From NCBI GenBank assembly GCA_937958705.1, contig CALGNJ010000038.1, positions 1 through 34,249 of the forward strand: 34,249 nt of DNA. The letters are read 5' to 3'. The notes under the pieces were generated by a model. The model was not told the DNA's origin. It worked only from the letters and a program-made list of their open reading frames with translations, and searched no databases. Below are positions 2,965 to 34,236 of the stretch, piece after piece. The translations under genes and the position numbers were made by a program. Each line of letters starts with the position of its first letter. Position 1 is the stretch's first letter. The DNA comes from Minisyncoccota bacterium. GTDB lineage: Bacteria > Patescibacteriota > Minisyncoccia > Phycocordibacterales > GCA-2747955.

Positions 2965-3116
2965 GCAGCTTCCAAAATAGGCGTATTACATCGTCAGGTA
3001 AGTAAAATATTTTCTCAATGTATAAGACATACATCTCTCAAATATTTGACTTCCCTTCCTTGTACTACATCCTATTTTGAAACCTTAGGTTTTGTAGTGA
3101 CTTACTGAAGGATAGA

Positions 3117-3146
3117 AAAAGAGTGATGTGTACGCATCACTCTTTC
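3117..3146. terminator. Hairpin terminator, probably bidirectional
   Basis: Stem GAGTGATG, loop TGTACG, stem CATCACTC, flanked by an A5 run on the left and TTT on the right. It lies downstream of rnj (+) and of the frameshifted small ORF (-). Confidence 0.5.
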
Positions 3147-3251
3147 TACATTATTAAGCAAGAATAATCTACACGTTAGTGCATATTAAATTAAAGAGTT
3201 ATTCTTAACATATCAGCTTTTTTTGGGTTTAAAGTCGCCTTTCAATAACGC

Positions 3252-3511
3252 TTAGTGAAAATCTTGATCAACGATGATATGACCGTTGTCAAAACAGCCA
3301 TACTCCATAGTTGAATTTGTTGCATCAAAGTTTAGATAAGTTATACAAAATCTATCTGCATAGCCAACAGCTGCTTGTATCTCGTCTCCTTTAGACAAGC
3401 CTAGTGTTGGACAATCCTCATATATTTTTGCATAACAGCTGCCTGCATCTTGTAACTCAGTGTTGAAACCCCAAAATCTATTTCAATTGTAACTCTCATA
3501 ATTTTCTCCAT
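3252..3511 (-). pseudogene. Small orphan gene of about 88 codons, split by a 1-nt frameshift
   Basis: ATG at 3511 opens MEKIMRVTIEIDFGVSTLSYK..., which stops at TAG 3401-3403. A second frame is open from 3482 to TAA 3252-3254 (...ELQDAGSCYAKIYEDCPTLGLSKGDEIQAAVGYADRFCITYLNFDATNSTMEYGCFDNGHIIVDQDFH) but has no start codon. The two frames overlap around the TTTTGGGG run at 3469-3476. Confidence 0.4.
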
Positions 3512-3526
3512 AAATGAACCAGAAAC

Positions 3527-3554
3527 ACTATACTAATTATTACATACTAGTCAA
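3527..3554 (-). promoter_or_regulatory. Sigma70-type promoter for the small frameshifted ORF
   Basis: On the minus strand: TTGACT (3554-3549), 16-nt spacer, TATAGT (3532-3527). The ATG lies 15 nt downstream of the -10. Confidence 0.55.
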
Positions 3555-3705
3555 TTAATCAAACCTGTTTTACGTAGATACAGAAAGCCGGTTTGGTTAA
3601 TACATCTAGATACCTCTATGATTTTCTGATCATTGAATAAAATAGTAGACCGTCGGACAGTCAACTGCTTTTGAAATAATTCAGTATTTTACACCCCCAT
3701 CTCTA

Positions 3706-3739
3706 AATTTGAGTTCCAATCCAGATTGGAACTCAAATT
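3706..3739 (-). terminator. Terminator hairpin after the dus operon
   Basis: Perfect 15-bp inverted repeat AATTTGAGTTCCAAT / ATTGGAACTCAAATT around the loop CCAG, about 40 nt downstream of the dus stop. Confidence 0.6.
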
Positions 3740-3780
3740 GTTCATTGTTTTATTTTTGGATAAAAAATTTGGGATAATTT

Positions 3781-4815
3781 TTATATGTCTTTAAGTGTAG
3801 CAGTGATGTTGTCTAACAACTCCTTAGGTTCATGTATTTGCATAAGCTCGTTCCGAACCTCCTTTGCGCCCGGGAACCCATTAACATACACCTTTAAAAA
3901 CTTCTTCATTAAGTAAAACGACTTAATTCGCTTTCCAAACTCTTTCATATTACGCTTTGTTGGTCCAAAATTAGCCTCAAATAGGGTAATATGCTCTTTG
4001 AGCAACATGTATCGCTCTTTGACACTTGGTACCCTGTCAGCGTCAAATAACAGAGGATTCTTAAATATTCCTCGTCCAATCATCACTCCATCTATTCCAT
4101 ACTTGCTAATTTTTGCGTACGCTTCTTCTTTAGTATTTATGTCTCCATTCCCGAGCAATAGAGTATGTGGTGATATCCTGTCTCTCATCTCTCTAATCTC
4201 CGTCATGAGCTCCCAGTGAGCAGGAACTTTGGACATCTCTTTTCTAGTGCGTAGATGAATAGTCAGCATGTCTACATCTTGCTCCAAAAGAAACTGTATC
4301 CAGGAAATATCAATCTCATTCCATCCAAGTCTAGTTTTTACCGCCACATCAAGTTTAGGAGCTCCTTCTTTAACAGCCTGTATTAATTTTCGTGCCAGTT
4401 CTCTGTTTTCTTTCTTTATTAGCTCTGCACCACAAACCTGCTTATTAATGGTTCTTGAAGGACATCCTGTATTAATATCCACACCATCGAAACCCAGTCT
4501 CTGAACTAGAGCCGCACCTTGTCTAATATTGTCTGGTTTACCTGAAAATATTTGTGCTATTACCGGAGACGTGCTCCTTTGTTTCTTGGTATATTCCAAA
4601 TCTCTAAGCAGACGTTTCCTCCCTGTTGGATGAGCAAGACCATCTGCCGAGACAAACTCTGTATATAAAAGATCTGGCGTAGAATACTTAGCTAGTATTT
4701 CTCTAAATGCATTATCTGTGACATCTGCCATGGGTGCAATAACACAAAGCCCCTTCCCTTGTGTTTTCCCGAGAGCTTTTTTCCATATTCCTTTTTTATT
4801 CTTTTTTAAAAACAT
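3781..4815 (-). CDS. dus: tRNA-dihydrouridine synthase
   Basis: Dus-family motifs are present (APMADVTDNAFR, GVDINTGCP, TIM-barrel layout). I prefer ATG 4815 (MFLKKNKK...). The listed start at 4875 is a TTG only 5 nt from the ftsQ-like stop. TAA stop at 3781-3783. Confidence 0.8.
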   Translation of the reverse strand: MFLKKNKKGIWKKALGKTQGKGLCVIAPMADVTDNAFREILAKYSTPDLLYTEFVSADGLAHPTGRKRLLRDLEYTKKQRSTSPVIAQIFSGKPDNIRQGAALVQRLGFDGVDINTGCPSRTINKQVCGAELIKKENRELARKLIQAVKEGAPKLDVAVKTRLGWNEIDISWIQFLLEQDVDMLTIHLRTRKEMSKVPAHWELMTEIREMRDRISPHTLLLGNGDINTKEEAYAKISKYGIDGVMIGRGIFKNPLLFDADRVPSVKERYMLLKEHITLFEANFGPTKRNMKEFGKRIKSFYLMKKFLKVYVNGFPGAKEVRNELMQIHEPKELLDNITATLKDI

Positions 4816-6978: not shown

Positions 6979-7818
6979 TTAATTATGGTTATACATATGA
7001 ACGTCTCTCTGCGGGAACGGAATCGATATTCCTGATATATCAAATTCTTTTTTTATCTGCTCAATGAGGTCAAATCTTACTGCCCAGTATTGTTCTGAGT
7101 CAGAAACAAAGGATCTGGTCAGAATATTGACTGAACTATCTGCTAATTCAGAAACAGCAATGACTGGTTCTGGATCTTGTAACACATGTGTGTTGTTAGA
7201 GATTACTTTTTTGATTATATTTTTTGCTTTATCTATGTCGTCTGAATAACTTATTCCAAATATAATTTCTATTCCAAAGTGACTATTACCAAAATAACTT
7301 ATAATTGAATTATTAGATAACTCACCATTTGGAATAACTATTCTTCGATTATTTCTGTCACGCAGCACGGTATAAAGGATTTGTATTTTTTCAACAACTC
7401 CTGTGTGCGCCGATGTCTCTATCCTATCTCCAACCGTAAATGGTTTAAAAAATAGTATAAGTGCACCACCTGCAAAGTTTGCAAGAGAACCCTGCAAAGC
7501 AAGTCCAACAGCTAATCCTGCTGCACCAAGCAGTGCAACAAATGAGCTTGTTTGAACACCTAGGATTGAAACTGTCACAATCAGTAAAATTACTTTGAGA
7601 GCAACACTAATAAAGCTCTGTAGAAAAGACTCTAGTGCTGGATCTATCTCAACTCTTTGAAACGAAAACCCAATAACTTTAGCAATTTTTTTTATAATAA
7701 AAAGCCCAATAAACCACGCCGCTACCGCAGCAACAATCTTAAATCCATATGTGGTAAGTGACTCGACAATCAATGTCTGTAATTCAACAATAGTCTCCTT
7801 GGTCAAAAAGTTATCCAT
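6979..7818 (-). CDS. mscS: Small-conductance mechanosensitive channel (MscS family)
   Basis: Three TM helices are followed by the MscS beta-domain signature PFTVGDRIE...GVVEKI...IVIPNGEL. 279 aa. Confidence 0.85.
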   Translation of the reverse strand: MDNFLTKETIVELQTLIVESLTTYGFKIVAAVAAWFIGLFIIKKIAKVIGFSFQRVEIDPALESFLQSFISVALKVILLIVTVSILGVQTSSFVALLGAAGLAVGLALQGSLANFAGGALILFFKPFTVGDRIETSAHTGVVEKIQILYTVLRDRNNRRIVIPNGELSNNSIISYFGNSHFGIEIIFGISYSDDIDKAKNIIKKVISNNTHVLQDPEPVIAVSELADSSVNILTRSFVSDSEQYWAVRFDLIEQIKKEFDISGISIPFPQRDVHMYNHN

Positions 7819-22208: not shown

Positions 22209-23708
22209 TTATAGTTCGTCTTCTGCATCCTTAGCAAGCTGTTCTGCCTCTTCTGCTTGTTCTTCTGCGTCCTCTGCTTTTTTGATTGCTTTATCGTAAT
22301 CTTCATCCTCATACTCCTTCTCTGCATCCTCAAGATCATCCTTTGCATCATCATACTTCTCATCAGCCTCTTTCAATTTATCTTCAGCATCGTCTACATT
22401 ATCACCGTCATCTTCAGCCTCTTTTATCTTGTCTTCAGCTTCATTGATTTCTTTCTTTGCGTCATCAAGTGCATCCTCTGCGTCATCAATTGCTTTCTTA
22501 GCGTCATCTTTGAGTGATTCTCCATCTTTGGCAATTTTTTCCGCATCTTTGGCTAAGTCCTCAGCATCTTTTGCCAAATCTTCAGCCTTTTCATAATTCT
22601 TATCATCATACTCGTCTTTTGCTTCATCGTACCTCTCATCAGCCTCTTTCAATTTATCTTCAGCATCTTCCACATCAACTCCATCATCTTCGGCTTTCTT
22701 GATTTCATCTTCAGCTTCATTAATAGCATCTTTCGCATCATCAAGTGCTTCTTTTGCGTCATCTTTATCTCCATCAGTTTCACCAATTGCATCTTCAGCG
22801 TCTTCAGCCATATCTTCAGCTTCTTTACCAAGTGAGACAGCTAAAGCATATTTTTCCTCATCATATGCGTCTTCTGCCTCTTTAAGTTTATCTTCAGCAT
22901 CTTTAAATAGATCTTCAGCCGTCTCAACGTCTTCACCCTTGTCTTCCTCTTCTTTTATTTCATCCTCAACTTCTTCAAAAGTATCTTCAATATCATCGAG
23001 TGCTCGTTTTGCTTCAATTCGAGTAACCTCATCATCAACCACACTAGTTGTTGAGCCTGAACCGATTGCTGCTTGCGCCTGCTTTGTTTTTGTTAAGGCA
23101 GTATTAGCAGAGGTAATAGCCTTACTTGTCTGATTATCTAGAAAAGCAAAAATAGCATCAAACAGATTTGACTGTGCATCATTTTGCAATGTTTCAGCTG
23201 TAGACGTTTTAAGCTTGTCGCTCTTTGCGTCATTAATCATATTTGTAGTGTTTTCAACTTCAGTTACTGCACTCTTTAGTGCCAGTCTGAGCAGTGCTGA
23301 AAGTCCAGTATTTGCCGGAGTGGTTACTGTAGTAGTTTGAGTTGCAACTGTTGTAGGTGCTACTAAATCAGTTGAGACCCGTGCGTATGTAGCTCGTGAT
23401 ACTGGCCCCCAATACCCTGTTGCCGGAGACACTCCCTGTGCACGTTGCCAATTAATAACAGCTGCTTTTGTTCCACCTGCAAATTTGGTTGTTTCCAGAC
23501 CTGTTGAACCGAGCCCCGATGTTGCAACTGGAAATCCAGATGTGTTTAGAAATTCTTGTAAACACTGCACGTCAGCACCTATGTCTCCAACCTCTAAGTC
23601 TCTATCAAAAGTACATGATGCTGCCTCGGTAAAACTAGGCATCATCAATACTGCCACAAACCCTGCAAGACCCGCCAAAAGTATTTTTAAAGAAGATGTA
23701 TTAACCAT
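22209..23708 (-). CDS. Secreted or anchored protein: peptidoglycan-binding domain plus long acidic coiled-coil repeats
   Basis: Signal/TM segment, then a PG_binding_1-like segment (GDIGADVQCLQEFLNTSGF...INWQRAQGVSPATGYWGP), a Thr/Ala-rich linker, and about 270 aa of D/E/K/A repeats. Confidence 0.65.
   Translation of the reverse strand: MVNTSSLKILLAGLAGFVAVLMMPSFTEAASCTFDRDLEVGDIGADVQCLQEFLNTSGFPVATSGLGSTGLETTKFAGGTKAAVINWQRAQGVSPATGYWGPVSRATYARVSTDLVAPTTVATQTTTVTTPANTGLSALLRLALKSAVTEVENTTNMINDAKSDKLKTSTAETLQNDAQSNLFDAIFAFLDNQTSKAITSANTALTKTKQAQAAIGSGSTTSVVDDEVTRIEAKRALDDIEDTFEEVEDEIKEEEDKGEDVETAEDLFKDAEDKLKEAEDAYDEEKYALAVSLGKEAEDMAEDAEDAIGETDGDKDDAKEALDDAKDAINEAEDEIKKAEDDGVDVEDAEDKLKEADERYDEAKDEYDDKNYEKAEDLAKDAEDLAKDAEKIAKDGESLKDDAKKAIDDAEDALDDAKKEINEAEDKIKEAEDDGDNVDDAEDKLKEADEKYDDAKDDLEDAEKEYEDEDYDKAIKKAEDAEEQAEEAEQLAKDAEDEL
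22212..23021 (-). repeat. About three tandem coding repeats of 85-92 codons
   Basis: A block of about 32 nt, TCATCAGCCTCTTTCAATTTATCTTCAGCATC, recurs around 22359 and 22636, a period of about 277 nt. The peptide DAEDKLKEADE(R/K)YD(E/D)AKD recurs with a 92-aa period. Confidence 0.7.
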
Positions 23709-23815: not shown

Positions 23816-24583
23816 TTAGTAGTCACCTTCGTTCTCTTCGTCTTCGTAATCGTCTTCTTCAATTGATGGGTCGTATGCTTCACCGCCCAACCGTTCAATC
23901 ACTTCATGAATCATTTCGTCATGCGCATCATCAGGATTTCCTTCTGCCTCTTCATATAGCTCATTTAGAATCTCTGGTACCTCAACACTCTTGAATCCAG
24001 CTTCAACAATATCTGTCACGTATTCTCGCATTTCTTCAAAAAAATCTTCTCGCTCCATGTGTGCCATACTCTTTTTAGTTAAACGTAATATAGAAGCATC
24101 ATAATATTTTTTTAGGAAGATGCAACACCTTTTACCAACAGTGGGTTTTTTATGTTTGGCTCTGTCAAATACCTCAGCAAACTGTGCGACGTTTGAATAT
24201 ACAAGCTCCGGAAGTGTGTCTTTGTTTACAAATTTTACTTCGTTGCACTCTCGGCTTGGAGTGAAGTCCAGGTGCGGAACAGTTGTCTCATAAAACAGAT
24301 TGGCTATCCAAGACCCTGTCCGATCATGCTGACCTGTTATCACATATACGGGTAGCTCGGCAACATGTGTTGGCGTAATTCCCATCTCTTCTTCCAGTTC
24401 TCGTGTCACGTTTGCTTGTGCACCTTGTCCATACTCCCATCCTCCTCCTGGAAACTCCCATTTTCCGTTTGATTCTTTTGTTATCAAGAACTTGGTTCTT
24501 GTTTCGTCTAGGATTAACGCTTTAGTACTAATTCGGTAAAAATTTGGAGGAATATTTTCATTGTGTTCTGTAGGTGATTTCAT
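23816..24583 (-). CDS. Nudix hydrolase continuous in frame with an acidic C-terminal module
   Basis: Nudix box GGGWEYGQGAQANVTRELEEEMGI. From residue 173 (ATG 24067) an 83-aa, highly acidic segment follows an AT-rich, promoter-like spacer. Confidence 0.7.
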   Translation of the reverse strand: MKSPTEHNENIPPNFYRISTKALILDETRTKFLITKESNGKWEFPGGGWEYGQGAQANVTRELEEEMGITPTHVAELPVYVITGQHDRTGSWIANLFYETTVPHLDFTPSRECNEVKFVNKDTLPELVYSNVAQFAEVFDRAKHKKPTVGKRCCIFLKKYYDASILRLTKKSMAHMEREDFFEEMREYVTDIVEAGFKSVEVPEILNELYEEAEGNPDDAHDEMIHEVIERLGGEAYDPSIEEDDYEDEENEGDY

Positions 24584-25255: not shown

Positions 25256-25660
25256 TTAAAAATCTAATTCGAGATCATTGAGCAAAATATCTTCATTCTC
25301 TAGAACCTCTTGAATATCTTGCACGTGAAAAACTGCTGGATGTAGCTGCATAAGTGACCGCTTAGAATCCTCACCTACAATATAGATTTTATTTGCCTTA
25401 CTGTTCGATAGTGCAATTCCTAGCTCTACAAACATGTCGGTACCTTCTGAGTCACTTATCAATACAAAAATATCTGCCTCTAACACTTGTTCTACTATTC
25501 GCTCCGAAAAGGCAGTAACTTCTGGATTATTCTCAAATGAATTAAATTTCTCAACATATAACCACTCAGAAAGCACTTCTTCTCCTACCTCAGTAAGTTT
25601 ATCTGCCAAAGCTCTTAATGTTGTCTGATGACGTGTTCGTGATGCTAGGTACCATTTCAT
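25256..25660 (-). CDS. Nucleoside 2-deoxyribosyltransferase-like (NDT-fold) protein
   Basis: MKWYLASR... N-terminus and ADIFVLISDSEGTDMFVELGIALSNSKANKIYIV resemble the NDT family's D..GT..E.G.A motif region. I prefer ATG 25660; the listed 25666 start is a TTG. Confidence 0.4.
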   Translation of the reverse strand: MKWYLASRTRHQTTLRALADKLTEVGEEVLSEWLYVEKFNSFENNPEVTAFSERIVEQVLEADIFVLISDSEGTDMFVELGIALSNSKANKIYIVGEDSKRSLMQLHPAVFHVQDIQEVLENEDILLNDLELDF

Positions 25661-25679
25661 AAGCAAAGTATATCAAATC

Positions 25680-25699
25680 AAAATAGCCCTTACGGACTA
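25680..25699 (-). terminator. Terminator after module B
   Basis: On the minus strand: TAGTCC, loop GTAA, GGGCTA followed by TTTTGATTTG. One G-U pair exists only in the minus-strand RNA. Confidence 0.55.
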
Positions 25700-25715
25700 T
25701 CTTTAGATATACGTG

Positions 25716-25837
25716 CTACCGGACTAAGACTCAGCGCCAGTTCTAATTCACTACGTTCATAAGAACTCGCTGCCCCGTCCCTCACCTCCTCACTTCGTTT
25801 GTCGAGAGTTCGGTCTTGTTCGAGTCCAGTTCCAATA
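25716..25837 (-). ncRNA. Module B: unclassified 122-nt structured element 3' of tRNA-Gln
   Basis: The 5' arm is antisense and the 3' arm is sense to the tRNA-Gln 3' half. The core is homologous to module A, with compensatory changes in the stem of a shared hairpin. See findings. Confidence 0.45.
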
Positions 25838-25842
25838 GGTAT

Positions 25843-25882
25843 AACAAAATCACCCAGCCTATTCAGACTGGGTTCATTTGTT
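25843..25882 (-). terminator. Long hairpin directly after tRNA-Gln
   Basis: On the minus strand: AACAAA-TGA-ACCCAG, loop TCTGAATAGG, CTGGGT-GAT-TTTGTT. Confidence 0.5.
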
Positions 25883-25887
25883 ACATG

Positions 25888-25958
25888 CTACCGGACTAGG
25901 ACTCGAACCTAGATTGCCTGGACCAAAACCAGGTGTCCTGCCATTAGACGATCCGGTA
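25888..25958 (-). tRNA. tRNA-Gln (anticodon UUG)
   Basis: The 71-nt cloverleaf folds by hand: UACCGGA acceptor, anticodon arm CCUGG-UUUUGGU-CCAGG, T arm CUAGG-UUCGAGU-CCUAG. It has a U1-A72 pair and G73 discriminator, and no encoded CCA. Confidence 0.88.
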
Positions 25959-26068
25959 ATGTGGATCTGTGATAATTTTATTAGTTATTTTCTAACCAGG
26001 CAAGCCTGGACCGCTATAGTCTTAATTGCAGGTGTCCTGCCATTAGACGATCCGGTAGTGTGGATCTG
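25930..26068 (-). repeat. 40-nt direct repeat (39/40): tRNA-Gln 5' flank plus tRNA positions 1-29
   Basis: The copies lie at 25930-25969 and 26029-26068. On the minus strand each reads CAGATCCACA(T/C)TACCGGATCGTCTAATGGCAGGACACCTG. Confidence 0.9.
26004..26057 (-). pseudogene. Truncated tRNA-Gln copy: 5' two-thirds, altered anticodon loop, no T arm
   Basis: It is identical to tRNA-Gln through CCTG. A 16-nt stretch CAATTAAGACTATAGC then replaces GTTTT, GGTCCAGGC is shared again, and the sequence diverges into the hairpin CCAGG-CTTG-CCTGG. Confidence 0.6.
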
Positions 26069-26119
26069 ATGTGCGATAAGATGTTGTTCAAGAATCGGCA
26101 CGGTTTTAAATCAAGGCCG

Positions 26120-26264
26120 CGGGTGATTCGAAATCGGGATCAAGTCTCTAAACTCACTTCGTTCGTTAAGAGCTTCCTCCCCGGGCTCACCTAGTCACTT
26201 CGTGACTTATGGCTCCGCCTTTCGATTCTCTACACAAGCAAAGCAGTTTGCTTGCTCATCACCC
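26120..26264 (-). ncRNA. Module A: unclassified 145-nt structured element 3' of tRNA-Trp
   Basis: The 5' arm is the exact reverse complement of tRNA-Trp nt 54-72, interrupted by a 25-nt hairpin insert. The 3' end is ATCACCCG. The core is homologous to module B. See findings. Confidence 0.45.
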
Positions 26265-26266
26265 TT

Positions 26267-26286
26267 GAAAACGCGTATGCGTTTTC
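26267..26286 (-). terminator. Hairpin directly after tRNA-Trp
   Basis: GAAAACGC, loop GTAT (ATAC on the minus strand), GCGTTTTC. Confidence 0.55.
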
Positions 26287-26288
26287 TG

Positions 26289-26359
26289 CGGGTGATGAGA
26301 GAATCGAACTCCCGACGGCGGTTTTGGAGACCGCAGTTATACCACTTAACTAATCACCC
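26289..26359 (-). tRNA. tRNA-Trp (anticodon CCA)
   Basis: The 71-nt cloverleaf folds by hand: GGGUGAU acceptor, anticodon arm GCGGU-CUCCAAA-ACCGC, T arm GGGAG-UUCGAUU-CUCUC. Discriminator G, no encoded CCA. Confidence 0.9.
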
Positions 26360-26436
26360 AATGGCTGACATTATAACTGATATTAGTTATAAGTGCACCA
26401 TTTTTACTAACAAAGAGCGCGCCGGGGCGCGTGTCT

Positions 26437-26592
26437 TTATTTTTTAGTCTCTTTGTACGTTACGTGTTTTCGTGCAATAGGATCAAACTTCTTAAACGAT
26501 AGTTTATTTTCTACTGACTTTTTGTTACGTCGTGTGTACCGGATGTGTCCAGTCTCTTCTGACTTAACTTTTACAAGATGTTTCTGTGCCAT
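26437..26592 (-). CDS. rpmG: 50S ribosomal protein L33
   Basis: [51 protein letters not shown], 51 aa. The true ATG is at 26592. Confidence 0.85.
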
Positions 26593-30643: not shown

Positions 30644-32434
30644 TTAGATTTTAGAACCTGCTCTTTTCCGAGCAGACTCTGTCAGGTGGGCTTTTCTAAG
30701 TCTCACCTCGTTTGGAGTGACTTCGATATATTCGTCTGACCTCATCATTCCAAGAGCCTTTTCTAGAGTAACTTCCATAGGTGGCGTAAGCTTTACCGTT
30801 CCGTCAGATCCAGATGCACGCATGTTGGTCAGCTGCTTACCTTTGGTGGGGTTAACCACCATGTCTTCTCCTTTTGCGGTATTTCCCACAACCATACCTT
30901 CATAGACCTCTTGGTTTTGTGAAATGTATAGTGTCCCGCGCTCCTGCATGTTTGCAATTGAAAACCCAAGTGCCTTACCTGTTGCCATAGCAATCATTGA
31001 TCCTCGCTCAGTCTTTTGAATTTCCCCTGCAAAAGGCCGGAACCCAATCACAAGTGTGGTTAAAATTCCCTCCCCCTTAGTATCAACAATGAATTCATTT
31101 CGATATCCGAGTAATCCTCTAGTTGGCATCTCGAATGTCATTTTGGTTTGAGAACCATCTTGCTCCATATTCACCATGATTCCTTTTCGTTTTCCAAGCT
31201 TTTCAATTACATTTCCTGAGAATTCTCCAGGCACTAGAATAGTCACCTCTTCAAACGGCTCTTGTTTAACACCATCAATTTCTTTAACGATAACTTCTGG
31301 TTGAGATACGGCTAGTTCAAATCCTTCTCGACGCATGTTCTCGATTAGAACAGCAAGATGCATTTCTCCACGTCCAAATACTTGATATCTTGAATCATCT
31401 GAGAAATCCACCTGTAGACCTACGTTGATCTCTAGCTCTTTTTCAAGTCGTTCACGAATCTGCCGAGATGTTAAAAATTTACCAACCTTTCCTGCAAACG
31501 GTGAATCGTTTACAAACATAAATAGTCCAATAGTTGGCTCATCAACTGAAATAGCTGGCAGAGCCTCTGTCTCTTCATCAAGAACAATCGTCTCTCCAAT
31601 AAAGATCTCTGGAATACCCGCAATCATCACAATGTCTCCAGCTGTTGCTTCTGAGACCTCTTCTTTTGCCATCCCCTTGAATGAGAATAGTTTTGTTAAC
31701 TTACCTTTGTAGACTTTACCTTCAGCATCTTTTACCATTACTGATGCATTTGCTGGTAGTGTTCCTTCGTATACACGACACACACCCATTCTTCCTAGGA
31801 AGTTATCATATGCAAGGTTAAACACCTGTGCCTTGAGGGGTTGCGATTTAAGGTCGTCTCCAGATGCAGGAGCTACTTTCTCTAGTACTAAATCAAGAAG
31901 TGGTGTTAGGTCCGCAGACTCATCAGTCATTTCTTTTTTAGCAATACCGTCTCGTCCAATTGCGTATACGGTCTCGAAGTCCAATTGTTCTTCTGTTGCA
32001 CCCAGATCCATAAATAGTTCGTATACCTCGTCGTGTGCTTTTTCAACATCTGCCGCTGGTTTATCAATCTTGTTCAAAACAAGAATAGGCCTTAATCCAA
32101 GCTCTAGTGACTTTTTAAGTACAAACTTAGTTTGTGGCATTGGCCCCTCTGCCGCATCCACCACAAGCAACACTGAATCAATTGAACGCAATACTCGCTC
32201 AACCTCTGATCCAAAGTCAGCATGGCCTGGTGTATCAAGAATATTAATCTTTGTATCTTTATATAAACAAGACGTATTCTTTGCGTAGATGGTGATTCCT
32301 CGCTCTTTTTCAAGATCATTCGAGTCCATTGATGCACCCTCTTCGGTCATCCCTGTTTGTTTTAAAATTTCATCTGTAAGTGTTGTCTTTCCGTGATCAA
32401 CGTGGGCAATAATTGCGATGTTTCTGATTTGCAT
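30644..32434 (-). CDS. typA: Translational GTPase TypA/BipA
   Basis: 596 aa with MQIRNIAIIAHVDHGKTTLTD, DTPGHADF, NKID and a BipA-specific C-terminal domain. Confidence 0.93.
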   Translation of the reverse strand: MQIRNIAIIAHVDHGKTTLTDEILKQTGMTEEGASMDSNDLEKERGITIYAKNTSCLYKDTKINILDTPGHADFGSEVERVLRSIDSVLLVVDAAEGPMPQTKFVLKKSLELGLRPILVLNKIDKPAADVEKAHDEVYELFMDLGATEEQLDFETVYAIGRDGIAKKEMTDESADLTPLLDLVLEKVAPASGDDLKSQPLKAQVFNLAYDNFLGRMGVCRVYEGTLPANASVMVKDAEGKVYKGKLTKLFSFKGMAKEEVSEATAGDIVMIAGIPEIFIGETIVLDEETEALPAISVDEPTIGLFMFVNDSPFAGKVGKFLTSRQIRERLEKELEINVGLQVDFSDDSRYQVFGRGEMHLAVLIENMRREGFELAVSQPEVIVKEIDGVKQEPFEEVTILVPGEFSGNVIEKLGKRKGIMVNMEQDGSQTKMTFEMPTRGLLGYRNEFIVDTKGEGILTTLVIGFRPFAGEIQKTERGSMIAMATGKALGFSIANMQERGTLYISQNQEVYEGMVVGNTAKGEDMVVNPTKGKQLTNMRASGSDGTVKLTPPMEVTLEKALGMMRSDEYIEVTPNEVRLRKAHLTESARKRAGSKI

Positions 32435-32743: not shown

Positions 32744-34236
<1,493 letters not shown>

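Follow-up and report, generated by a model that had tools for sequence, protein, structure and literature searches.

The closest known analogue of the element described here is the RttR (rtT) RNA of Escherichia coli, together with the 178-bp repeats of the tyrT–tyrV operon. In the E. coli genome NC_000913.3, the 19-nt end of tRNA-Tyr, AATCCTTCCCCCACCACCA, is present in four sense copies, three downstream of tyrV at a spacing of 178 nt and one between tyrT and tyrV, and the 171-nt RttR RNA ends on one of them. The element itself is located in a 34,249-nt stretch of a Minisyncoccota bacterium (contig CALGNJ010000038.1 of assembly GCA_937958705.1; hereafter, the window), where two modules, A and B, lie on the minus strand 3' of the tRNA-Trp and tRNA-Gln genes. 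Each consists of a conserved core preceded by an antisense copy (X') and followed by a sense copy (X'') of the end of the adjacent tRNA (X). Like RttR, the modules are small candidate RNAs directly 3' of a tRNA gene that end in a sense copy of the tRNA 3' end (about 19 nt), and in both cases units of about 170–180 nt are bounded by direct repeats, so that tandem duplication is possible. RttR differs in having no antisense copy, and the tRNA-end copies of the modules, unlike that of RttR, do not include the CCA. There is also no relation in sequence or structure: no Rfam family except tRNA, and hence not the rtT model, was found at E ≤ 10, and a search of the core against E. coli genomes and known phages revealed no similar DNA, only tRNA-Gln being matched. 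Finally, unlike RttR, the core of the modules is a conserved, apparently structured RNA that is also found away from tRNAs.

Other described systems share some features with this locus. At tRNA attachment sites (attL/attR), as in the modules (and in the related loci L039 and L002), a direct repeat runs from the T-loop to the 3' end of the tRNA, occupied and empty sites coexist, and the downstream genes vary. However, in comparison with tRNA-targeting integrative elements, the unit is only about 170 nt long and lacks their cargo, the window has no integrase, and there is an extra antisense copy; moreover, the repeat runs past the tRNA end, and the same core occurs at non-tRNA loci without repeats. 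The attC sites of integrons and attP1/attP2 of CTXphi are imperfect palindromes of 2 × 25–45 nt, one arm of which is the chromosomal target, and an integrated CTX-type element has the order sense copy, body, antisense copy, about 90 nt, sense copy. The palindromes formed here by X, a hairpin and X' are similar to these folded sites in layout only; by inspection, the attC core motifs (RYYYAAC/GTTRRRY) are not conserved in the modules, and there is no IntI or Xer context. Correia/CREE, ERIC, BOX, REP/BIME and miniature inverted-repeat transposable elements (MITEs) are small intergenic elements, some of which are processed by RNase III. Like the modules, they are about 100–150 nt long, structured, multi-copy and patchily distributed near gene 3' ends; however, their terminal inverted repeats are constant, whereas the modules have a conserved interior and copy-specific ends that match the upstream gene.

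The conserved core of modules A and B

Judging from their sequences and predicted folds, modules A (subtype 1) and B (subtype 2) are paralogous genes belonging to an uncatalogued family of structured RNAs in Paceibacteria-type bacteria of the Candidate Phyla Radiation (CPR). Module A occupies positions 26264–26120 of the minus strand and module B positions 25838–25714. Both had been described in a first-pass annotation of the window; they are present where it placed them, their sequences agree with its description, and the two tRNAs were located by ARAGORN and Rfam. The similarity of the cores, also pointed out there, exceeds that of shuffled controls: the level of identity is 75% over 79 aligned nucleotides, and the score is 57 vs. 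21.6 ± 4.9 (maximum 46; z = 7.2) in 1000 shuffles. The ordered motifs ACGAAGTGA..AGGTGAG are found within the window only in A and B.

The core is about 90 nt long and comprises two domains. The first contains stem P1, a GGA/GA internal loop, stem P2a and a variable hairpin; the second, separated by a linker of 2–4 nt, is the P3 hairpin, in which P3a, an internal loop, P3b and P3c follow one another. In module A, P1 is GGC/GCC, P2a is GCC/GGU, P2 is the variable hairpin, and the P3 domain carries the loop GAACGAAGUGA and a U.U mismatch. The 8-bp hairpins with an 11-nt loop and this mismatch, which had been drawn for both modules, are indeed present: P3c contains the U.U mismatch in every copy, its loop being GAACGNAGUGA, and the mismatch is invariant in 7/7 tabulated sequences (six complete cellular copies and a viral hairpin). 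One P2a pair is G.U in four copies and A-U in two. The P2 hairpins differ in sequence in every copy and are fully paired, with the exception of L088 (6/8 pairs). In the P3 domain, module A differs from L069 at 4/47 positions (43/47 identical), although the two belong to different Paceibacteria-type genomes.

Independent minimum-free-energy folds of A and its homologues L069 and L045 resulted in the same architecture (z from −2.9 to −5.2). In an alignment of five sequences, 85% of the cells are paired, and both partners are altered in seven pairs; the covariation score is 0.38 vs. 0.22, was reached by 0/500 shuffles and collapses when the partners are slid. This compensatory-change evidence for a structured RNA comes from 5–8 sequences. 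The alignments of the copies were made manually; a MAFFT alignment of all copies was too poor. The minus strand had been suggested as the structured one, and folding points the same way: the energies on the minus and plus strands are −55.3 vs. −45.7 kcal/mol for module A (z = −5.2 vs. −4.1) and −38.8 vs. −23.7 kcal/mol for module B (z = −2.5 vs. −0.8). In addition, the G.U pair of P2a and the G.U pairs in the arms of B and in terminator T2 fit the minus strand only.

At the gathering thresholds of Rfam 15, only the 16S rRNA and the two tRNAs were detected in the whole window. At E ≤ 10, nothing except noise was found over the modules in the region 25500–26500, and the same applies to L039, L043, L045 and L069. 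The core is presumably the functional part, binding a protein or RNA partner.

Several other identities were considered and rejected. The earlier statement that the modules are neither a plain duplication nor a tRNA stands: ARAGORN and RF00005 call only the two real tRNAs, and the 5' arm is the reverse complement of the T-arm and not a D-arm, which argues against a tRNA pseudogene as well. It also holds that they match no Rfam, insertion sequence (IS) or MITE family; the arms of A, B, L069, L088 and L045 are mutually unrelated and match local sequence, which does not suit a MITE- or IS-derived element. For a T-box riboswitch, there is no RF00230-type match, and the downstream genes are tRNA-Gln or related to nucleotide metabolism. 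Likenesses to 5S rRNA, SRP RNA, RNase P RNA, hammerhead, group II domain V, k-turn/box C/D and 23S H93 were seen by eye only and are matched by no Rfam model at E ≤ 10; the motifs behind them are CCGAAC..GAAGUGA, GUGAUGAG, GAGCCAUAA and GAACGU.GUGAG, some of which derive from the tRNA-Trp antisense. Protein coding was rejected because the linker from GGTGAG to CGGGG is 2, 3 or 4 nt long in different copies and the stems covary; a spurious open reading frame (ORF) across the RNA, used as a protein query, matched only itself. The idea of a primer-binding site for tRNA-primed reverse transcription was dropped, there being no complement to CCA and no reverse transcriptase. TIGR-Tas systems consist of arrays of ~36-nt units with two 9-nt spacers, adjoining a Nop-domain Tas protein (PMC12045711); the modules have arms of 13–21 nt around a 90-nt core and form no array, and Pfam scans found no Nop-domain ORF in the window.

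Arms matching the upstream gene

The antisense arm of module A contains an insert, which is the perfect hairpin CAAGCAAA-CTGC-TTTGCTTG. Without this insert, the arm is complementary to tRNA-Trp positions 54–72 at 19/19 positions, exactly as first described. For module B, the complementarity reported earlier was likewise found; the figure of about 80% was not, and the measured level is 76% as DNA. As RNA, the B arm pairs with the 3' end of tRNA-Gln at 18/21 positions, two of them as G.U, on either side of a 3 × 3 internal loop. The sense arm of A is a 13-nt copy of the tRNA-Trp end with an internal deletion; in the minimum-free-energy fold, it forms 7 + 6 bp with X'. The sense arm of B differs from tRNA-Gln at 1/19 positions, a match that never occurred in 100 shuffles, and the direct repeat around module B (23 nt at 91%, spacing 172) runs about 4 nt past the tRNA end.

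Homologues of the core were also found away from tRNA genes. The exact pattern ACGAAGTGA..AGGTGAG..CGGGG was run on genome, metagenome and viral collections; its matches L001, L021 and L022 are in high-GC coding DNA and were rejected as chance, and a second pattern based on A and L039 gave no matches. A relaxed pattern scan revealed two true homologues that do not adjoin tRNAs, L069 and L045. In L069 (Ca. Paceibacteria), the RNA lies between khpA and a NUDIX gene in the rpsP–khpA–trmD cluster; L045 is a copy from Ca. Kaiserbacteria. Two further groups of loci were reached through KhpA homologues: in L088–L094 (Logan SRR267868xx), the RNA is directly 3' of khpA (covariance model, E = 6e-5), and in L083–L087, both the RNA and the NUDIX gene are absent. 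The first-pass annotation had presented the module as a tRNA-linked device and had named copies away from tRNAs as a result that would speak against this; such copies exist, and given the cores behind khpA and elsewhere (L069, L088, L045), the module is not specific to tRNAs. When L069 (3690–4451) is compared with its closest khpA relative, L083 (2860–3180), the RNA and the NUDIX gene can be seen as inserted between khpA and trmD. A NUDIX gene is also present in the window (23816–24583), about 1.1 kb past module B.

A covariance model built from five copies and run on 260 kb recovered only family members, the L088 group and an isolated P3c-type hairpin in two caudovirus-like contigs. The latter hairpin, CTAACAGTTAT-GAACGTAGTGA-ATTACTGTTAG (L097 2917–2951 and L098 7716–7750, IMG/VR), has the same loop and U.U mismatch, and the contigs encode a terminase, a portal and a major head protein. 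It lies within a 3.2-kb ORF-free stretch holding tandem repeats of about 100 nt (1953–2400), and a second similar hairpin is located at 4433–4459.

At 8/8 loci examined, X', the stretch of 8–22 nt that immediately precedes the core, base-pairs with X, the final nucleotides of the upstream gene, on the other side of that gene's terminator hairpin. Due to this complementarity, the terminator hairpin becomes a long helix, P0, in a read-through transcript. Depending on the locus, X belongs to the end of tRNA-Trp or of tRNA-Gln, to the final codons of khpA or to upstream sequence without an assigned gene. The khpA ends of L069 and L088 are synonymous but different (TTACGAATA vs. CTCAAGATT), and X' matches each of them. 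Control terminators of the window are plain hairpins of about 5–16 bp (13–16 in the strongest) without such an extension; their folds were inspected directly, as a count of the pairs enclosing the loop was too noisy. Similarly, an intact X' was not found at the RNA-less loci L032, L083 and L043 (after tRNA-Gln), and L002 has a degenerate X'-like stretch only. As the 5' flank of the non-tRNA copies matches their upstream gene, the rule widens from the adjacent tRNA to whatever lies upstream. The claim that the arms track the adjoining tRNA is borne out even where the core subtype is swapped, since L043 combines a B-type core with tRNA-Trp arms. Thus, as far as the sequences indicate, the flanks of the conserved core are templated on the upstream gene, whether it encodes a tRNA or a protein. 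We know of no RNA or mobile-element family that copies its flanks from the 3' end of the upstream gene.

The sense copy X'' is limited to the tRNA-linked copies; the khpA-linked and L045 copies have X:X' only. Behind tRNAs, X'' also repeats the discriminator and 3–6 trailer bases, and these bases are kept in A, B and L039. The X':X'' closing helices form in the module folds. When tRNA and module are folded as one transcript, the 3' half of the tRNA is captured by X' and the 5' acceptor strand of the tRNA by X'', which makes competition by X' physically plausible; this read-through fold is 13–14 kcal/mol more stable than the tRNA plus the closed module. By folding, pairing of the antisense arm is energetically feasible with either of the partners proposed at the outset, the 3' half of the tRNA and the sense arm of the module itself. 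The RNA gene has no recognisable promoter and in every case lies no more than 15 nt from the terminator hairpin of an upstream gene in the same orientation.

The locus in relatives and its surroundings

Relatives of the locus were reached via the DUF2853 and L33 proteins. In L043 (identical L33), tRNA-Trp and tRNA-Gln are separated by a single module, M. The 5' arm of M is a contiguous tRNA-Trp antisense (18/19) without the insert hairpin, whereas its core is of the B type: from CGGGG onward, 40/43 nt are identical to B, and hairpin P3c shows a compensatory change of C:G to G:C. Consequently, the subtype at the tRNA-Trp site is swapped between near-identical relatives, type 1 being found in the window and type 2 in L043. 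Since tRNA-Gln of L043 runs straight into T2, that locus is without exactly the 172-nt unit composed of T1, X', core B and one repeat copy. The L043 counterpart of the second, degenerate sense copy of the tRNA-Trp end (CGATTCTTGAACAACA) is the sole 3' partner of the arm there, according to the alignment of the window with L043 and the L043 fold.

In L033 (81%), an orthologue of module A is present together with the insert hairpin, in which CAAGCAAA/TTTGCTTG is changed in a compensatory manner to CGAGCAAA/TTTGCTCG; the contig then ends. L039/L040 (78%) have a longer, partly scrambled copy with an antisense arm 3' of tRNA-Gln, and in L039 a perfect 16-nt sense copy is found about 740 nt downstream. 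The 89-aa ORF between tRNA-Gln and the module of L039 has no family match. L002 (87%) retains just an eroded remnant 3' of tRNA-Gln, L036 (72%) has possible eroded relics at 7413–7597 and 7670–7750, and L032 (90%) has no module. On this comparison, the presence of the module is patchy among close relatives. The hairpin that follows tRNA-Trp is kept in L002, L033, L043 and L036, with differing stem sequences.

Some further details of these loci can be noted. In L039 (2860–3010) and also in L040, two tandem mini-hairpins lie 5' of tRNA-Gln, and their ends copy the acceptor stem (TTACCGAATC ... GATATCGGTAA). An additional degenerate copy of the tRNA 3' end is located at about 3541–3575 of L039. 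The P3c-type hairpin at 3657–3704, whose loop is GAACGAAGTGA, lies on the opposite strand from the remainder of the module; a local inversion might explain this, or the hairpin might be left over from a second copy. The L036 relics comprise GATAATAAAGAATCGAG, a degenerate antisense arm of tRNA-Trp that follows the Trp hairpin, as well as the 10-mer ATCGAAAGGC and, downstream of tRNA-Gln, the 10-nt copy GCCGGTAGCA.

On the minus strand of the window, the order is the DUF2853 gene, rpmG (L33), tRNA-Trp, the hairpin, module A, a spacer, a truncated duplicate of the tRNA-Gln 5' half, tRNA-Gln, terminator T1, module B, terminator T2 and a 136-aa ORF (Table 1). The tRNA-Gln duplicate shows 98% identity over 40 nt and then diverges in the anticodon loop (CAATTAAGACTATAGC in place of GTTTT); it has no T-arm and is absent in L043.

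Table 1. Features of the tRNA-Trp/tRNA-Gln locus, with coordinates in the window.
Feature	Position	Strand	Description and evidence
tRNA-Trp(CCA)	26288..26359	-	ARAGORN; Rfam RF00005, 64.2 bits; last 19 nt (T-loop to acceptor 3' strand) = X for module A
Hairpin GAAAACGC-ATAC-GCGTTTTC	26265..26287	-	Directly 3' of tRNA-Trp; tip of long helix P0(A)
Module A, antisense arm X'	26221..26264	-	GGGTGATGAG (26264-26255) and AGAATCGAA (26229-26221), split by the 25-nt insert hairpin (26254-26230)
Module A, core, type 1	26134..26220	-	Covariance model R1: 96 bits, E = 2e-18
Module A, sense arm X''	26120..26133	-	TTTCGAATCACCCG; start of the T-loop, 3' acceptor strand and discriminator of tRNA-Trp
Second, degenerate sense copy of tRNA-Trp 3' end	26082..26097	-	CGATTCTTGAACAACA; 22 nt beyond module A
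Partial tandem duplicate of tRNA-Gln leader and 5' half	25991..26068	-	Period 99 nt; upstream of the real gene
tRNA-Gln(UUG)	25887..25958	-	ARAGORN and Rfam; last ~21 nt = X for module B
Terminator T1	25842..25883	-	3' of tRNA-Gln; tip of helix P0(B); terminator scan, inverted-repeat match and fold
Module B, antisense arm X'	25818..25838	-	CTATTGGAACTGGACTCGAAC; complementary to tRNA-Gln 3' end
Module B, core, type 2	25733..25817	-	Covariance model R1: 76.5 bits, E = 3e-14
Module B, sense arm X''	25714..25732	-	GAGTCTTAGTCCGGTAGCA; distal copy of the direct repeat bounding the 172-nt unit
Terminator T2	25668..25712	-	Terminator scan; minus-strand version needs a G.U pair; directly 3' of tRNA-Gln in L043

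The other neighbours are ordinary chromosomal genes: RNase J, Dus, SerRS, DprA, PBP, EF-G, S7, S12, GatB, a LexA-like protein, DinB, SpoU, DnaX and TypA. The GC content of the window is about 0.39, and the closest species-representative match of its DUF2853 protein is from a Candidatus Paceibacterota metagenome-assembled genome (87% identity). The 16S rRNA gene (32744–34236, minus strand) is followed by typA/bipA (30644–32434) instead of the 23S and 5S genes; thus, the rRNA genes are unlinked. A 499-aa ORF (22209–23708, minus strand) has a long, extremely acidic, repetitive C-terminal region rich in D, E, K and A, which explains the strong GC and AT skew at 22–23 kb. Between the RNase J and Dus genes, there is an 800-nt low-GC (0.335) gap (2965–3780) with long palindromes at 3101–3162 and 2996–3056 and a perfect hairpin with 16-nt arms at 3706–3739. 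One arm of this hairpin has ATTGGAACT in common with the 5' arm of module B, probably by chance.

Possible role and origin of the arms

The reading we favour, tentatively, is that the module is a promoter-less trailer RNA co-transcribed with the upstream gene, that its arms are RNA helices for release or insulation, and that the tRNA-linked arms mimic the tRNA end. The RNA would be made by read-through and would be severed from the upstream transcript, or insulated from it, at P0, RNase III being one enzyme that might act there. In the tRNA-linked copies, the T-arm and the acceptor 3' strand of the tRNA would be caught in P0; X'' could then draw X' off and free the tRNA, and X' and X'' would together make an acceptor/T-type helix that carries the discriminator and trailer bases of the tRNA, through which RNase P and RNase Z might release the RNA. 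A similar principle is known from MALAT1 mascRNA and from RNase P substrates such as pre-4.5S RNA, in which an acceptor-type helix placed after another RNA lets tRNA enzymes set the ends; however, those examples are eukaryotic or unrelated in sequence, whereas the mimic in the modules is a literal copy of the stem of the neighbouring tRNA, and its processing is predicted. The arms may have arisen by local copying of the neighbour's 3' end, with direct repeats giving rise to X'' and palindrome extension to X', and the resulting units of about 170 nt could be duplicated or deleted between the repeats, as at E. coli tyrT–rttR.

Several points weigh against this proposal. T1 resembles an efficient terminator, and the interval upstream of B is too short to hold a promoter. 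Cleavage by RNase III, RNase P and RNase Z is inferred only. Pairing selection alone does not explain a perfect 19/19 antisense copy, so a templated event at the DNA level must be assumed in any case. With only some eight family members seen, the covariation statistics are thin. The patchy distribution, the subtype swap, the scrambled L039 copy with its inverted P3c and the contig breaks smell of DNA mobility. As for the breaks, the KhpA of the L088 group is carried by 15 contigs, seven of which are shown; six of these seven end at the same base inside the P3c hairpin, and the seventh ends earlier. This suggests that the element is repeated in that genome, breaking the assembly graph.

A mobile DNA unit would account for such signs. 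It could be a non-autonomous mini-cassette (tRNA 3'-end copy, hairpin, antisense copy, core) inserted at the T-loop/3' end of tRNA genes by a recombinase encoded elsewhere; the X–hairpin–X' palindrome would then be a folded single-strand attachment site mimicking a double-stranded target, X'' the displaced original tRNA end (attR) and the RNA core the cargo. As in classical att sites within tRNA genes, the direct repeats begin in the T-loop and extend to the tRNA end, although they continue into the trailer, and the layout of the locus matches that of an integrated CTX-type element. The window and L043 form an exact occupied/empty pair for the 172-nt unit; deletion between repeats of 19–23 nt explains the empty site equally well. 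Fragments of tRNA-Gln are scattered around the locus, the gene content after tRNA-Gln varies between close relatives, and in L039 the 89-aa ORF lies between the tRNA and the perfect distant repeat, all of which is consistent with a cassette, as are the swapped subtypes, the inverted L039 hairpin and the contigs broken inside the element. However, a Pfam scan of the 26 window ORFs found no integrase, transposase, Rep or reverse transcriptase (the first-pass annotation had suggested looking for an integrase or transposase), and a PHROGs scan of two window and two L039 ORFs revealed no integrase or recombinase. The ACGAAGTGA motifs, earlier suggested to be recombinase sites, turned out to be loop nucleotides of covarying hairpins and are not obviously such sites. 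In addition, the khpA-linked and L045 copies have X:X' and no third copy, X' follows the synonymous drift of khpA in orthologous loci, which fits in situ co-evolution better than a pre-formed att site, and the G.U pairs of the arms together with the covariation of the core point to selection at the RNA level. A cassette is the strongest of the competing explanations but less likely than a trailer RNA. A self-propagating RNA gene, landing right after terminators and building its 5' arm as a reverse-complement copy of the end of the upstream gene, seems still less probable; the arm would be copied by hairpin-primed or template-switch synthesis at the terminator and would then serve as a guide tethering the scaffold to the transcript or DNA of the neighbour.

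It is also conceivable that the core is a real RNA and the arms have no function, X' being produced by template-switch extension or correction of quasi-palindromes at strong terminator hairpins and X'' being tandem-duplication debris of tRNA 3' ends. Template switching can keep palindrome arms matched without selection, and partial duplications abound at the locus (the pseudo-tRNA-Gln, the second degenerate Trp copy, the L039 fragments); the decay of the B arm, the degenerate sense arm of L043 and the eroded relics in L002 and L036 are in line with this explanation. We nevertheless regard it as very doubtful, given that X:X' is found at all eight RNA-linked terminators and at no control terminator or RNA-less orthologous locus, that two C-to-U changes in the acceptor part of the B arm (TACCGGA to TATTGGA) still pair as G.U, and that X'' retains the discriminator and trailer bases. 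The least probable explanation is a cis-regulatory leader, in which the core would be a riboswitch-like aptamer acting on the downstream gene and the following terminator its expression platform. The aptamer-like sequence conservation of the P3 domain would suit a leader, and downstream of B, L039, L045 and L069 there is in each case a terminator and then a gene in the same orientation, the products of several of them acting on nucleotides (a nucleoside 2-deoxyribosyltransferase-like ORF in the window, a DHH phosphoesterase in L039, a NUDIX protein in L069). However, the downstream genes have no common family, A and the L043 module precede tRNA-Gln and not a protein gene, no promoter was found between the upstream terminator and the RNA, and no alternative pairing between the core and the downstream terminator; X' and X'' would also be left unexplained.

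The copies of tRNA ends and the repeat-induced assembly breaks call for caution in the annotation of tRNA loci and in genome assembly. If the arms act at the DNA level, the locus would represent a cassette system of very small size that attaches at tRNA genes through a hairpin site; a self-propagating RNA gene, if that is what it is, would mean that CPR bacteria have a new mode of mobility templated by the target, or of guide acquisition, which works at protein genes as well as at tRNA genes. If they act at the RNA level, as we tentatively propose, the modules show how a promoter-less RNA can borrow the transcription of its neighbour and the tRNA-processing machinery. The CPR (Patescibacteria) have tiny genomes, and their non-coding RNAs are almost unstudied; modules A and B provide a strongly conserved candidate for a new RNA family in these bacteria.

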